Virus record (IMG/VR): IMGVR_UViG_2562617057_000002
Source: a virus
Taxonomy: Duplodnaviria > Heunggongvirae > Uroviricota > Caudoviricetes
DNA length: 27,684 bases
Strand: one strand, 5' to 3'
In this document: positions 1-4,599 of the stretch, in pieces
Layout: every line of letters begins with the position of its first letter
Position numbering within the stretch: the stretch's first letter is position 1
Translations under genes and position numbers: made by a program
Notes under the pieces: model-generated
Database searches by the model: none
What the model was told of the DNA's origin: nothing
Seen by the model: the letters and a program-made list of their open reading frames with translations, nothing else

Positions 1-611
<611 letters not shown>

Positions 612-831
612 CAGCTAACTCCTTCGTGTATTTAGCATCGAGTGCATCAGCAGAACGCTGGCGCTGCTGCATGTCAGTAATGGTTGCGTTCGCCAGCTTC
701 AGTTCTCTTGCGTTTTTGTCGCGCTGCTCTTTGTAGGTAATGGCGTTATCACGGTAATGATTAACAGCCCATGACAGGCAGACGATGATGCAGATAACCA
801 GAGCGGAGATAATCGCGGTGACTCTGCTCAT
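612..831 (-). pseudogene. Rz: Phage i-spanin Rz, 5' fragment (~73 codons) truncated by the IS21-family insertion; embedded Rz1 presumably lost
   Basis: N-terminus [34 protein letters not shown]...DAKYTKELA is lambda-Rz-like; ATGA overlap with the endolysin stop; the frame then runs into IS-derived sequence ([16 protein letters not shown]) and stops at 562. Confidence 0.7.
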
Positions 832-1325
832 TGCTGCCCCCACAAACAGACTTCACGCTCAATCTCACGACGGGTCATCAGCCCTTTCCATTGCTTACCG
901 CCAGCATATGTCCAGCGACGTAGCTGGTCACATGCGCCTTTGATATCGCCCTGGTTTATTTTGCGAAGAAGCGTCGATGTTCTGAAATTGCCAGCGCCCA
1001 CGTTGTAAACGAACGAGTAAAGAGCGCCGCGCGTTGTTTCCGGTATATCGACTTTGATGTACGGGTTAATTTGTCTGGCGACAGTGGCAAGGTCTTTATT
1101 CAGGAGAGCTTTGCATTCTGCTTCGGTATACGTTTTACCAGGCATGATGTCTTTTCCGGTGTGTCCGTGACATACAGTCCATACACCAATGATATCTTTG
1201 TATGGTATGTAGCTGACACCTTCCAGACCATCGTTACCACCTGGGCCAGTGATTAACACAGATGCTATAGCAACAGCCCCGCCACCAATAGCAACTGCAA
1301 CAGCCTTGCGTAATGATGGCGACAT
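828..1325 (-). CDS. R: SAR (signal-anchor-release) endolysin, T4-lysozyme-like muramidase of phage-21 R type
   Basis: 165 aa; N-terminal Gly/Ala-rich weakly hydrophobic helix ([20 protein letters not shown]) typical of SAR endolysins; sits between holin and Rz with overlapping start/stop codons. Confidence 0.85.
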
Positions 1326-1540
1326 TATTCACCTCTCGCAGCCTTACGCTTATCTTCTCTTATTTTGAAATACAGATTCGTCAGATAAGTCAGAAGCCCC
1401 AGAAGCAGACTTCCCAGCACACCAATCGCAGCCCACTGTGATGGACTGACCTGATCCAACCACTGCAAAAACCAGTAGCCGGCACTGCCGGCGGAGGTGC
1501 CGTAGGCAATGCCCGTTGAAATTTTGTCCATGGATTTCAT
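1325..1540 (-). CDS. S: Class II pinholin (phage 21 S21-like) with dual-start motif
   Basis: 71 aa, two predicted TM helices, N-terminal M-K-S-M dual start, charged C-terminus ([13 protein letters not shown]); immediately upstream of and overlapping the endolysin start. Confidence 0.85.
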
Positions 1541-1871
1541 AGCCTCACCTCCGCAAATAACGGATGGCGTAGTTTTACACTGAGAAATGAAAGGGATTTG
1601 AAAAGAAAAAAACGCAAAAGCGGGCGAAACGATATATACAGTAAGGAAAGCACTCTATCCAACAAACCACCCACAGTTAATCGGAATAAAAGCAGAGTGC
1701 TTATGAATGATCGCACGCCCGAAGGTTAGTATTTCTGCACAGCAATTTTGCAAAAAAGGCGATCATTCATAACGCAAACGTCTTTCAGTCACTCCGGGCT
1801 TTCCCATCATCGCAGACTGAAAGACTTTAACTTGAGCGGCAGCGGGAATCGAACCCGCATCATCAGCCTGT

Positions 1872-1905
<34 letters not shown>

Positions 1906-1908
1906 ATA

Positions 1909-1983
<75 letters not shown>

Positions 1984-1986
1984 CGC

Positions 1987-2063
1987 TGGCCCACCACCGA
2001 GGACTCGAACCTCGCACCGTCAACTTAGAAGGTTGATGCTCTATCCGGATGAGCTAGTGGTGG
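1987..2063 (-). tRNA. tRNA-Arg (anticodon UCU), argO/argU-like
   Basis: Reverse complement folds as a cloverleaf: acceptor CCACCAC/GTGGTGG, anticodon stem TCAAC/GTTGA with loop CTTCTAA (anticodon TCT), T-arm CGAGG-TTCGAGT-CCTCG, encoded CCA. Confidence 0.75.
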
Positions 2064-2064
2064 T

Positions 2065-2141
2065 TGGTGGCCCTTGCTGGACTTGAACCAGCGACCTGGC
2101 GATTATGAGTCGCTCGCTCTGACCAACTGAGCTAAAGGGCC
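2065..2141 (-). tRNA. ileZ: tRNA-Ile2 (anticodon CAU, lysidine-type; often annotated tRNA-Met), ileZ/ileX-like
   Basis: Reverse complement GGCCCTTTAGCTCAGTTGGTCAGAGCGAGCGACTCATAATCGCCAGGTCGCTGGTTCAAGTCCAGCAAGGGCCACCA is close to E. coli ileX as I recall it; anticodon loop CTCATAA. Confidence 0.8.
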
Positions 2142-2226
2142 GGAGGCAGAATAATAACCATATGTCATCACATCTGCAAACTCATCTGACCACCAGCACG
2201 TTTAACGTCCTGTGCCGTTTTTCAGG

Positions 2227-2250
2227 TATAAAAACCCGCTCAATGGCGGG
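2227..2250 (-). terminator. Rho-independent terminator on the minus strand, tR'-like, between the Q-like gene and the tRNA cluster
   Basis: Minus-strand hairpin CCCGCC-ATTGA-GCGGG followed by TTTTTAT (plus-strand 2229-2250: taaaaacccgctcaatggcggg). Confidence 0.55.
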
Positions 2251-2310
2251 TTCTGGTAAAGTTCATGCGCTTGGTTCGCCTCGCGATACAGCTTTGCGAA
2301 GCGTACCTGA

Positions 2311-2339
2311 ATTGAAGCAGTTTATTGGCAAAAATGCAA
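2311..2339 (-). promoter_or_regulatory. Candidate late promoter pR'-like (minus-strand -35 TTGCAT, 17-bp spacer, -10 TTCAAT) directly downstream of the Q-like stop
   Basis: Hexamers read from sequence; position matches the lambdoid Q-pR'-tR' arrangement. No experimental or search support. Confidence 0.35.
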
Positions 2340-2347
2340 TAACTTTT

Positions 2348-2890
2348 TTATTGGCTTTCTCCGCATAACGCTAATTTCATTGGTATATACAGAATGTGTT
2401 CAGCAACACCCAACCATGCGTCAATGCGATTTCTGCAAGTTTTCAAGCTCCAGCCAGGGCGATACTTATTTAACTGTTGTGCCATTTTCAGCTTACTCAT
2501 CCCCCGCCCTTTATACCGTTGCCGGAGGACACTAATCAATCCAGGATGCTCTGCCAGCACCTCACTTATGACTCTATCAATACATAACGCCTCTGCATCA
2601 GTACAATGCGCCAGCCAGGTCTTTTGCTTGCCATTGATCATCTCTCGCAAAAACGCTTCCAGCTCAGGTTTCTCTATTCCCGCTTTTTTCATCCTGCGCA
2701 GGGCTTCATTGACGGCTGTTTTTGTCATTTTTTGGGATGCCAGCAACTGCTTGAATATATTTCCCGTCTTACCGCCACCAATATACGACCAGCGCCCCCA
2801 CATGCGCAGTTTTCCCTGAATCCAGACACTTTCCAGCGTGGTGAGACGAAGGTGTTCCCCGCTTTTGCCTGTATTTGTTGGGTAAATCAT
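2348..2890 (-). CDS. Putative late-gene antiterminator Q-like protein (180 aa from the SD-supported start MIYPTNTGK)
   Basis: Called mainly on synteny: last gene before the pR'/tR'-like elements, tRNAs and lysis cassette. ATGA overlap with the upstream YbcO-like stop; GGAAGG Shine-Dalgarno. Family identity not verified. Confidence 0.5.
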   Translation of the reverse strand: MIYPTNTGKSGEHLRLTTLESVWIQGKLRMWGRWSYIGGGKTGNIFKQLLASQKMTKTAVNEALRRMKKAGIEKPELEAFLREMINGKQKTWLAHCTDAEALCIDRVISEVLAEHPGLISVLRQRYKGRGMSKLKMAQQLNKYRPGWSLKTCRNRIDAWLGVAEHILYIPMKLALCGESQ

Positions 2891-3177
2891 AAATAACCTT
2901 CCTTTCTCCAGATTTCTTGTGTGCGAAAAACACCTTCTGCATGCATCAGGCGTAATTCTTCTTTGGTGTAATCGCTGGTTTTTACCCGCCCGTCGATTAA
3001 ATCGTGGCACGAGCTACAGGCAATAGCCGCCTGCATATCGTGTGGCTTTATCGCTGTTCCGCACGCTCCCGCCAGTCGGTAATGCGCCAGCACAGACGTT
3101 TCGGGATTGTGATTGCAGTAGCCAGGAATTCTGACGGTGCACATCTGCCCCCGCGCCGCTTTACGTAAATCCACCAT
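2887..3177 (-). CDS. YbcO-like phage protein (DUF1364-type, Cys-rich putative nuclease)
   Basis: 96 aa; motifs DLRKAARG...C.VRIPG.CN.NPETSVLAH.R...CGT..KP.D..A..ACS.CHD resemble DLP12 YbcO as recalled; typical nin-region neighbour of Q. Confidence 0.6.
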   Translation of the reverse strand: MVDLRKAARGQMCTVRIPGYCNHNPETSVLAHYRLAGACGTAIKPHDMQAAIACSSCHDLIDGRVKTSDYTKEELRLMHAEGVFRTQEIWRKEGYL

Positions 3178-3776
3178 TACGCAAACTCCAGTAACTGTGC
3201 GGCCACATTTTCGACTTCCTCCGGAGAGGAAAATTTACGGAACAGGATCCAGTTCCACAGCACATTCAGTACAGATTTATAAACCTGCTGAAACTCGGTT
3301 TCGTCCATGTTCGCAAATGCGATAGATTTTGCCCTGCGCCCACGGCTACCGTCCGGATAAATATGCTCGGTGTAAAATCCGGCCTGAATGGTTACCCACT
3401 CGCGGAAAGCCTCAAACGACTTTAGCAATGCTGTATCTCGGGTTCTGCGTGTCGCAACTGTATTCAGATATTGCTCTGCGGCTTCGCTCAGAGCTGGCGT
3501 ATGTTCCCGGCCTACTGATTCGCACAGGTACTCAACGAAGCCTGATACCAGTTTTTGTTCGCTAGGCGTGATCGCCCCTCCGACCGGAGTCCAGTAATCG
3601 AACCCCAGTTGCAGGAGTTTGAAAAAACGCTTGTGGAATGCGTAGTTACGCACACGCTTAAAGTCTGCGTGTATCCACTCACCTGTTTTGATTTGATGCA
3701 GAAAATCGCAACTCTCCGGCGTCGCCGGGAGAAGTAAACCAGAAGAAGTTTGTTTGACTAACTGTAAATGCACCAC
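3177..3776 (-). CDS. Phage nin-region protein, DUF1367-like (hypothetical)
   Basis: 199-aa ORF with GAGGG Shine-Dalgarno; start/stop overlap with the YbcO-like gene; family guess from recollection and neighbourhood. Confidence 0.5.
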   Translation of the reverse strand: MVHLQLVKQTSSGLLLPATPESCDFLHQIKTGEWIHADFKRVRNYAFHKRFFKLLQLGFDYWTPVGGAITPSEQKLVSGFVEYLCESVGREHTPALSEAAEQYLNTVATRRTRDTALLKSFEAFREWVTIQAGFYTEHIYPDGSRGRRAKSIAFANMDETEFQQVYKSVLNVLWNWILFRKFSSPEEVENVAAQLLEFA

Positions 3777-3957
3777 TACTACCCTCGTAATGGTGCGACA
3801 GGTACCAGGTGTTCAGACTGGCGTTGCCAGTATAATTTAGTCTTCTTTAATACAGAAGTGGCTTACAGAATTGTAACCGTCTCATTTAAACCGTCTTTCG
3901 CCTCCCTTTCCTGTTTCCGATACTAATGTCCATTTTCGCAGTAAAGGGACATTTAAG

Positions 3958-4599
3958 ATGAATGCACGAAAAGCGGTACTGGCAGACAATCCGGAATTGA
4001 TCCTGCGTGTGCTACAACTGAGATTTGACGAGTCACTGTCGTACCCGCGCATTTCTGCGCAGACCGGTATCAGCAAAACCGCCATTTTTTCTCTGGTGAG
4101 GCGATTTCACCAGGTATTCACTGACTGGCCTCTTTCCGGGGAATATTCCTGCGTGCAACTGGCCCGGGCTTTGTTCCCGGGGCGATACCCTTCAGCCCCG
4201 ACAGTAACTCAGACTGTGAAAACAGAGAAAAACCGCCGGAACCGATTTTCACCGGAGTTTAAATGGAGACTTGTTCAGCAAACTCTTTTACCCGGTGCCT
4301 GTGTCGCACAAATAGCTCGTGAGAACGGAATCAACGATAACCTGCTCTTTAACTGGCGGCATCTCTGGCGTAACGGCGGCCTGCAGCCGACCGGCGAACA
4401 TGAAACATCGCTACTTCCCGTGACGTTAACTCCGGAGCCGGATAATAAAATCCCGGCACCAGTGCAGATACCTGAACAGATGCCCGACAGTCTGTGCTGT
4501 GAGCTGGTTCTGCCGGCCGGAACTCTCAGGCTGAAAGGTGAACTGACACCGGCGTTATTACAGACACTTATCCGCGAAATGAAAGGGAGCAGCCACTGA
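3958..4599 (+). CDS. tnpA: IS66-family accessory protein TnpA-like (213 aa, with N-terminal extension)
   Basis: C-terminal half (RFSPEFKWRLVQQTL...IARENGINDNLLFNWR) matches the IS66 Orf1 HTH motif; first gene of the element; stop overlaps the tnpB start (ATGA). Confidence 0.75.
   Translation: MNARKAVLADNPELILRVLQLRFDESLSYPRISAQTGISKTAIFSLVRRFHQVFTDWPLSGEYSCVQLARALFPGRYPSAPTVTQTVKTEKNRRNRFSPEFKWRLVQQTLLPGACVAQIARENGINDNLLFNWRHLWRNGGLQPTGEHETSLLPVTLTPEPDNKIPAPVQIPEQMPDSLCCELVLPAGTLRLKGELTPALLQTLIREMKGSSH

Follow-up and report, generated by a model that had tools for sequence, protein, structure and literature searches.

Introduction

The leader between the Q antiterminator gene and the lysis genes of lambdoid prophages houses Shiga toxin (Stx) genes, tRNAs and several Hfq-binding small RNAs (sRNAs), and structured noncoding RNA (ncRNA) cassettes are already known from it. 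Examples are STnc100 (RF02076) and the PasD sRNAs, structured, terminator-ended ncRNAs of ~170-200 nucleotides (nt) on the sense strand of the Q-to-holin leader in E. coli and Salmonella lambdoid prophages. Here we describe another cassette of this leader, found in a stretch of 27,684 nt from a virus of the Caudoviricetes (IMG/VR record IMGVR_UViG_2562617057_000002; "the window" refers to this whole stretch). A first-pass annotation of the window had drawn attention to a perfect inverted repeat of 14 base pairs (bp) with a 44-nt loop, and had proposed that it could be a processing or termination structure of the late transcript, a protein-binding site, or a scar of cargo excision. We find that the repeat is the closing helix, P2, of the middle domain in a conserved and previously undescribed ncRNA of three hairpins (HP1, HP2 and HP3) that follows prophage tRNAs. 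Its attachment to a tRNA array and its likely kink-turn are unusual among the cassettes of lambdoid late leaders.

Several described systems resemble this element in part. Despite the similar description, STnc100 and PasD share no sequence or covariance-model similarity with it; our element is attached to tRNA genes and combines a kink-turn-like hairpin with a three-way junction. The 3'ETS-leuZ RNA, which Lalaouna and colleagues are said to have described in 2015, is the trailer of the E. coli glyW-cysT-leuZ tRNA operon and reportedly acts as an sRNA sponge. It offers the example of a functional RNA that comes from the trailer after the last tRNA of a polycistronic transcript and ends at the operon terminator, but it is only ~50 nt long and largely unstructured apart from that terminator, whereas the trailer described here spans ~190-230 nt and contains three conserved domains. 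Published tables for enteropathogenic E. coli list 3'ESTleuZ.

Three further comparisons involve phages. The species 1 and 2 RNAs of T4 (rnaC, rnaD) are stable, structured, non-tRNA molecules at the end of the tRNA cluster, with which they are co-transcribed and from which they are processed; T4 is, however, an unrelated virulent phage, and its RNAs, which we compared by description only, have tRNA-like 3' ends that our element lacks. In phage mRNAs, ribonuclease (RNase) III hairpins (T7 R1.1 and lambda sib, for example) likewise place a long regular helix (14-18 bp here, which stacking could extend) between the units of a polycistronic transcript, but HP2 usually encloses a conserved three-way junction and not a simple loop. 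Finally, the put RNAs of HK022 and HK639 are cis-transcribed lambdoid RNAs of ~70 nt with two hairpins, lie shortly after an early promoter and ahead of the terminators whose action they suppress, and act on RNA polymerase (PMC9378689). The put RNAs share the form of a cis-transcribed hairpin RNA, and HK639 also carries the present element, but position sets the two apart: our element lies in a late leader that is already served by Q, where antitermination would harm the lysogen. We rejected a put-like antiterminator on this logic and on position, since the element belongs to the Q-dependent late leader behind the tRNAs and the closest promoter-like site is over 300 nt away; no sequence comparison with put was made.

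Results

The inverted repeat recurs in related prophages

The arms of the repeat, TTATGAATGATCGC (1701-1714) and GCGATCATTCATAA (1759-1772), are 14 nt each, 100% complementary and 44 nt apart, exactly as first reported. This is the sole perfect inverted repeat of at least 14 bp with a loop of at most 120 nt across the 27.7-kb window, and dinucleotide-preserving shuffles of the window produced a comparable repeat in 6 of 300 cases (mean 0.027 per shuffle). A chance origin is unlikely, though possible, and the comparison with relatives provides the stronger evidence. On the phage late strand, which is the minus strand of the window, the 85-96 nt around the repeat fold better than shuffled sequences (z = -3.3 and z = -4.0). 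The repeat lies in a 293-nt interval between the last tRNA and the P21-type holin gene, in the gene order Q, tR'-like terminator, four tRNAs, interval, holin; the first-pass annotation had thus placed it correctly, in the slot where Stx-type phages carry toxin and moron cargo. Its picture of a single long hairpin was right for the stem and wrong for the 44-nt "loop", which holds internal structure in the form of two hairpins. This inner structure had been passed over, as had a second inverted repeat beside the first (1777-1790/1815-1828) and a third hairpin. The alignment across related prophages and the RNA folding that had been suggested alongside were both carried out: the repeat recurs in relatives and folds as a structured RNA.

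Compensatory changes and strand asymmetry point to a late-strand RNA

We used two alignments, one of HP1 and HP2 (34 distinct sequences) and one of HP2 and HP3 (51 distinct sequences, including loci retrieved independently of HP1). Divergent copies vary in their stems and keep their loops constant. In the first alignment, 96.9% of the helix cells are paired, compared with 36-54% after a shift of the 3' partners by 1-3 columns, and the covariation score of 0.200 compares with 0.129 in column shuffles, none of which (0 of 500) reached the observed score but which ignore the kinship of the sequences. Six pairs in this set change on both sides. RNAalifold, run de novo on the same 34 sequences, returned the same helices together with two covarying pairs that extend P2; within P2, covariation falls on positions 3, 10 and 11 and on the extension pairs. 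For the 51 HP2-HP3 sequences, the program again gave P2, P2a, P3, P3a and P3b. Compensatory changes were present at 9 of 41 pairs in this second set, and the P3 pairs 95/140, 96/139 and 97/138 are compensatory.

The two strands can be told apart by G·U pairs, each of which turns into an A·C mismatch when the opposite strand is read. Read on the late strand, the helix cells contain 270 G·U pairs and 6 A·C oppositions, and from this excess we infer that the structure is selected in late-strand RNA. P2a has G·U pairs in every sequence and therefore cannot form on the opposite strand. P2 taken alone is strand-ambiguous: its type-B copies have one G·U pair and, at the sixth pair, an A·C (or C·C) opposition that persists. 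Overall, the comparison gives us high confidence that the element is a conserved RNA structure of the late strand. The early suggestion of an RNA structure in the late transcript is in this respect supported, with compensatory changes that keep the helix and G·U wobbles that fit the late strand only.

The same data bear on a role at the level of DNA, whether as a palindromic protein site, as a recombination boundary between phage modules, or as a scar or miniature inverted-repeat transposable element (MITE). For such a role speak the perfect, palindrome-like repeat of the window and its location at a mosaic junction, where the neighboring modules differ among phages. As DNA, however, the type-B arms are imperfect, for a G·T opposition (a G·U pair in RNA) and an A·C opposition interrupt their symmetry, P2a pairs on one strand only, and the arms of one locus (L035) are wholly replaced by unrelated sequence with pairing kept. 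Together with the 270:6 ratio, these observations led us to reject a palindromic operator and to disfavor the protein-binding site that had been proposed. A MITE, an insertion sequence (IS) remnant and the proposed scar of cargo excision were rejected as well: the element occurs in one genomic context, always in the tRNA-to-holin interval, and is not dispersed (median, one copy per genome); its flanks (GTTTGCG and GCACTCT) show no direct repeats and no target-site duplication; it is kept in phages whose Q, tRNA and holin modules are not the same; and its variants alter the interior while keeping the helix at its site. A DNA-level role is, in our judgment, extremely improbable.

Three domains and a candidate kink-turn

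The features of the locus are listed in Table 1. Single-sequence folds recover the same three domains, with z = -3.0 for the whole trailer of the window and z = -5.4 for that of phage PhiR47_1 (plus terminator). HP3 abuts HP2 with zero spacer, and the GU-rich tract GGGUGGUUUGUUGG is the 3' strand of HP3, base-paired and without a free seed. The A/U-rich segment that follows varies in sequence by lineage. A search for conserved loop-loop complementarity between HP1 and HP2 found none.

HP2 is a stable hairpin in a leader region, and could in principle itself be an intrinsic terminator or pause hairpin of the late transcript, one of the roles first proposed for the repeat. Intrinsic terminators, however, combine a short G+C-rich stem and a loop of 3-8 nt with a U-tract directly behind the stem. 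The P2 stem is A/U-rich (9 of 14 pairs are A-T), 44 nt lie between its strands, the interval 1701-1772 contains no terminator according to the pattern scan, and the late-strand 3' flank of P2, GCACUCUGC, is the 5' arm of HP3 and contains no U-tract. Real terminators lie downstream, the actual one of this transcript ~75 nt away. We rejected HP2 as an intrinsic terminator, and termination or pausing at HP2 is so improbable that we practically discount it.

In described kink-turns, the -1b:-1n pair of the Watson-Crick C helix is commonly C:G, the 3b:3n pair is non-Watson-Crick, and a G at position 3n favors folding in metal ions (PMC8191799; see also PMC4382518). HP1 matches the kink-turn layout, with a bulge G21 A22 U23 (alignment columns) followed by G24 opposite A39 and A25 opposite G38; the pairs are C20:G40 at -1b:-1n, U26:G37 at 3b:3n and G27:C36 at 4b:4n. 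At the sequence level, the internal loop of HP1 is laid out like a standard kink-turn, and this layout also explains a chance-level Rfam match to box C/D RNA. The kink-turn positions lay within the search pattern used for the HP1 core, and independent support comes only from six loci found by BLAST (L001-L006) plus two others (L199 and L304).

Table 1. Features of the locus, with positions in the window
Feature	Positions	Strand	Description and basis
Four-tRNA array	1834-2141	-	Ile2/Met(cat), Arg(tct), Thr(tgt), decayed glyT-like tRNA called Val(tac)
Last tRNA, called Val(tac)	1834-1905	-	ARAGORN, PGAP
tR'-like intrinsic terminator	2228-2253	-	Between Q gene and tRNA promoter; ACCCGC-CAUUGA-GCGGGU-U5; read by eye, conserved in alignment
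Sigma-70-like promoter	2151-2180	-	TTGCAG-17-TATTAT, ends 9 nt before first tRNA; pattern scan
HP1	1777-1828	-	Kink-turn-like hairpin; folds, three P1 pairs with compensatory changes
P1, stem of HP1	1815-1825 with 1780-1790	-	11 bp, covarying
HP1 internal loop	1806-1814 and 1791-1795	-	Bulge GAU plus tandem G·A / A·G; invariant
P1a, GGG/CCC stem of HP1	1803-1805 with 1796-1798	-	Apical loop freely variable
HP2	1701-1772	-	Three-way-junction domain; folds, covariation
P2, closing helix of HP2	1759-1772 with 1701-1714	-	14 bp here, 16 bp in most relatives
P2a, inside HP2	1749-1756 with 1732-1739	-	8 bp; conserved 9-nt loop AAAUUGCUG at 1740-1748
P2b, short tetraloop hairpin inside HP2	1718-1725	-	CCUUCGGG
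HP3	1650-1700	-	Long irregular G·U-rich hairpin; P3 (GCACUCU/AGAGUGC), P3a (UCCGA/UUGGA), P3b
A/U-rich segment UUUCCUUACUGUAUAUAUCGUUU	1627-1649	-	Predicted single-stranded; between HP3 and terminator
Intrinsic terminator T1	1606-1626	-	Degenerate in window; CGCCCGC-UUUU-GCG-U7; read from sequence, comparison
Q-type antiterminator	2348-2890	-	DUF1133 and Phage_antitermQ
Holin, P21-type	1325-1540	-	Pfam PF04971, E = 1e-35
Lysozyme	828-1325	-	

Searches for known RNAs and other features

A cmscan of window positions 1-4000 against Rfam 15, with E up to 10, returned only the tRNAs and chance-level matches; the best score within the interval was 18.5 bits against a threshold of 52. Four related loci gave no Rfam 15 match at the element. 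Rfam families were rejected for want of a covariance-model match, including STnc100, AgvB, AsxR, Esr41, isrK, ribozymes and riboswitches. AgvB and AsxR are convergent sRNAs of other prophages (Tree et al. 2014). When PasA major and minor, PasD2 and the esterase-holin intergenic region of E2348/69 were compared with window positions 1300-2400 by blastn (word size 7), only chance matches of at most 16 nt appeared; PasB and PasC were judged by context, PasB lying inside structural-gene operons and PasC aligning with PasA. Within the searchable literature, a full-text search for the core sequences returned only chance primer matches. Two other candidates were rejected. Small open reading frames (ORFs) over HP2 have unconserved start codons and are shifted in frame by a poly-T tract of variable length, and a promoter-like match within HP2 (TTGCAA-16-TACTAA) has no T at the conserved last position of the -10 hexamer and is not called by the scan.

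Distribution and modularity

The tRNA-to-holin interval is present at ~96% identity in 523 of 5,426 complete E. coli genomes (~10%), and a second count puts the carriers at 536 genomes. Its position never changes, its median copy number per genome is one, and plasmids contain none. Among phage records, four contain the same version, and that of HK639 is ~74% identical. Shigella carries the module too: when a relaxed HP1 core was searched for in a single genome of each species, the genuine copies were confined to E. coli and Shigella flexneri, and the other 23 matches were chance ones without HP2. The module always lies between the Q gene and the lysis cassette, while Q genes, tRNA sets and holin families vary. 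In most loci the trailer is located directly 3' of the last tRNA, on the same strand and ahead of a terminator. The HP1 core begins 16 nt after the 3' end of the glyT-like tRNA in ~100 of 127 loci, and P1 of PhiR47_1 starts 2 nt past the tRNA.

Retrieval with core words of HP2 or HP3 added 16 loci and revealed how the trailer is built from parts. Six loci have no HP1 (L201, L214, L218, L235, L236 and L314); here HP2 follows the glyT-like tRNA directly, starting 0-2 nt after the CCA. Five loci have no tRNA, and the HP2-HP3 module sits behind a small sense-strand ORF, in its 3' untranslated region (UTR); this class is one exception to the usual location, the other being the loci whose terminator is not canonical (see below). 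The 5' half of HP1 is deleted in L285, decayed HP1 copies remain in L210 and L312, and L199 and L304 keep HP1 with G·U wobble changes. Two loci from the HP1-core scan diverge at HP2: L035 has an HP2 of unrelated sequence that still folds into stems of 7+9 bp (z = -5.0), and in L112 HP2 is cut down to a simple 18-bp hairpin with a 5-nt loop (z = -4.6). In the L005 type, HP3 is missing and unrelated sequence stands in its place. All variants keep a helix of 14-18 bp at the HP2 position, and P2 is thus the most persistent feature of the module.

The Q-to-holin leader as a whole is a string of separate ncRNA cassettes. STnc100 occurs in three of the loci (L004 2264-2469, L005 1644-1836 and L006 982-1184), either before the tRNAs or after the new element. 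L004 also has a near-threshold isrJ-like match at 1765-1837, which overlaps a terminator (1815-1839) downstream of Q.

The tRNA array and its promoter

In 75 of 90 loci, a promoter-like site, TTGCAr-17-TATTAT, ends 9 nt short of the tRNA array, and most of the others have a second family, TTGCrw-17-TATCAT, at the same spacing. The promoter is conserved in five contexts with differing upstream DNA. In the window it lies downstream of the tR'-like terminator, which the pattern scan did not call. With the promoter in this place, transcription of the array and the trailer may not require Q. This arrangement suggests that the prophage tRNAs are expressed independently of Q.

The last tRNA of the window, "Val(tac)", differs from the glyT-like tRNA-Gly(tcc) of most relatives in three ways: its anticodon is TAC in place of TCC, one base is deleted from the 3' strand of the acceptor stem, and the encoded CCA is lost. 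This decayed tRNA is probably non-functional. The prophage that hosts it is defective: within window positions 1-843, an IS21-family element (IstB ATPase ORF at 34-552 on the plus strand) interrupts the Rz lysis gene, of which the first 45 of 126 profile positions remain. A plus-strand ORF at 3958-4599 (213 amino acids), within the minus-strand early/nin region, has a helix-turn-helix-like N terminus and resembles an IS transposase orfA, which suggests a second insertion element. Although the prophage is degrading, HP2 is intact.

The second tRNA of the array (window 1987-2063, tRNA-Arg(tct)) has one scaffold across loci L001-L126, with the acceptor stem CCGCCAC...GTGGCGG, while its anticodon loop varies among prophages (Lys UUU, Arg UCU, Phe AAA, Leu UAA and several aberrant forms). 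Single Leu(cag) and ochre-suppressor-like (tta) calls also fall in this slot; they are slot calls only and may or may not share the scaffold. The neighbors of this tRNA in the array, Ile2/Met(cat), Thr(tgt) and Gly(tcc), do not vary. The variation of the second tRNA resembles diversifying selection, possibly against anticodon nucleases.

The element might itself take part in such a conflict, as a decoy or cofactor of phage tRNA arrays that sequesters or misleads tRNA-targeting defense nucleases, or that recruits a tRNA-processing or tRNA-modifying enzyme. Its tight linkage to tRNA arrays fits this idea, as do the many partly aberrant anticodon loops on one scaffold, which suggest conflict with anticodon nucleases. 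The kink-turn would bend HP1, and HP2, a junction of several helices, is at 72 nt about as long as a tRNA. However, a tRNA-like elbow, T-loop and CCA feature are all lacking, ARAGORN and Rfam see no tRNA or tmRNA similarity in HP1 or HP2, and the module also occurs without any tRNA. We regard a decoy or cofactor role, an idea drawn from association, as improbable.

Three observations concern the border between the array and HP1. In NCTC13148 (L005 963-1388), an HNH endonuclease gene lies between a tRNA-Asn and the leftover 3' end of the glyT-like gene (GCCCGCTCCA). At L010 (~1890-1960), what looks like a fusion joins the 5' half of a glyT-like tRNA, at a common TCAGyCT, to HP1, of which the 3' half is present. 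HP1 also has GATGATG and GGG/CCCG in common with the variable loop and T arm of the glyT-like tRNA. HP1 may derive from a glyT-like tRNA, though a deletion by micro-homology fits equally well.

A polymorphic terminator precedes the lysis genes

A canonical terminator follows HP3 by 12-41 nt in 79 of 128 loci. T1 forms a graded series, GCGGG-T5, GCGG-T6 and GCG-T7, generated by G-to-T changes at constant total length, of which the window has the weakest member; many type-A prophages likewise have a weakened terminator ahead of their lysis genes.

This polymorphism, and the large conserved structure directly upstream of an intrinsic terminator that precedes lysis genes, could be taken to mean that the element is a sensor or leader that tunes read-through of T1 and so sets the leak from the tRNA promoter into the holin and endolysin genes. 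Riboswitch aptamers often contain kink-turns (PMC4316175). Against such a sensor, we saw no conserved antiterminator pairing between the domains and T1, from which they are separated by a non-conserved spacer of ~22 nt; Q-modified polymerase ignores terminators; and HP3 and T1 are replaced in some lineages. Tuning of T1 is, in our view, very improbable.

Discussion

What the three hairpins do can be approached from their position. We propose that HP1-HP3 form a cis-acting, RNA-level module for 3'-end processing or stability of the tRNA/moron transcript, a proposal in which belief and doubt are evenly balanced. The trailer would be transcribed by two routes: together with the tRNA array from the conserved sigma-70-type promoter, and by read-through from pR' by Q-modified polymerase. 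Processing of the tRNAs would then release it. Tight helices begin 0-6 nt after the CCA end of the tRNA; at this distance they would set the cleavage site that releases the last tRNA and bar the way to 3' exonucleases. In Q-driven late transcription, the downstream lysis mRNA would be left with a base-paired 5' end, a poor substrate for RNase E. RNase III processing sites are regular helices of about one and a half to two turns, and P2, being long and regular, is a candidate for one. It measures 14-16 bp, or 18 bp in L112, and might be stacked on P2a, P2b or P3, although length alone is no proof of RNase III reactivity.

Several points weigh against this proposal. The terminator is weak or absent in ~38% of loci, the window included. 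HP1 is dispensable and HP3 replaceable, so that the three domains may not act as one unit. A plain stabilizer needs neither a kink-turn nor a near-invariant P2a loop. The phylogenetic depth is shallow, with only Escherichia and Shigella prophages, two main lineages and a few odd variants, and the compensatory changes consequently represent few independent events. In addition, the HP1 core, the P2a loop and the HP3 core served as search patterns, which makes their invariance in the viral loci partly a matter of construction; the unbiased sample consists of the BLAST-derived loci L001-L006, and these agree with the loci found by pattern.

The main rival explanation is a trans-acting regulatory RNA. 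Here, the trailer of ~190-230 nt (HP1-HP3 and terminator) would persist after tRNA processing and work like 3'ETS or 3'-UTR-derived sRNAs. Hfq or ProQ would be its protein partner, and base pairing with RNAs of the host or the phage would involve either conserved loops that are exposed or the A/U-rich spacer, with HP2 as a scaffold presenting the AAAUUGCUG loop. The setting is suggestive, since the Q-to-holin slot hosts other terminator-ended Hfq-binding sRNAs, STnc100 being present in L004, L005 and L006, and PasA, PasC and PasD adjoin the holin/lysozyme operon. The unit comes with a sigma-70-like promoter and, in most cases, a U-tailed terminator, and at tRNA-less loci the module occupies the 3' UTR of a small ORF. 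The loops of P2a and HP1 are far more conserved than the stems, and an invariant kink-turn and P2a loop fit a trans-acting RNA better than a passive stabilizer. On the other hand, the single-stranded spacer beside the terminator is lineage-variable, the GU-rich tract is paired and hence not free, the terminator is weak in many copies, and the strains studied so far (E2348/69 and O157) carry other cassettes. We consider trans action in this manner unlikely. A bolder reading, in which the element founds a new kink-turn ncRNA family that is co-expressed with prophage tRNA arrays and acts in trans, as a decoy or regulator in defense conflicts or in Hfq/ProQ-dependent host regulation, and is no passive signal, is doubtful.

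Thus, a covariation-supported structured RNA of ~190 nt joins the cassettes of the Q-to-lysis leader. To our knowledge, E. coli encodes no L7Ae-type kink-turn-binding protein, and HP1 is a rare candidate kink-turn in the RNA of an E. coli phage. If the module controls tRNA maturation or the stability of the lysis mRNA, as in the cis-acting role that we favor, it would bear on how the expression of late genes and cargo is set. If it acts in trans, it would be one more route by which prophages rewire their hosts.

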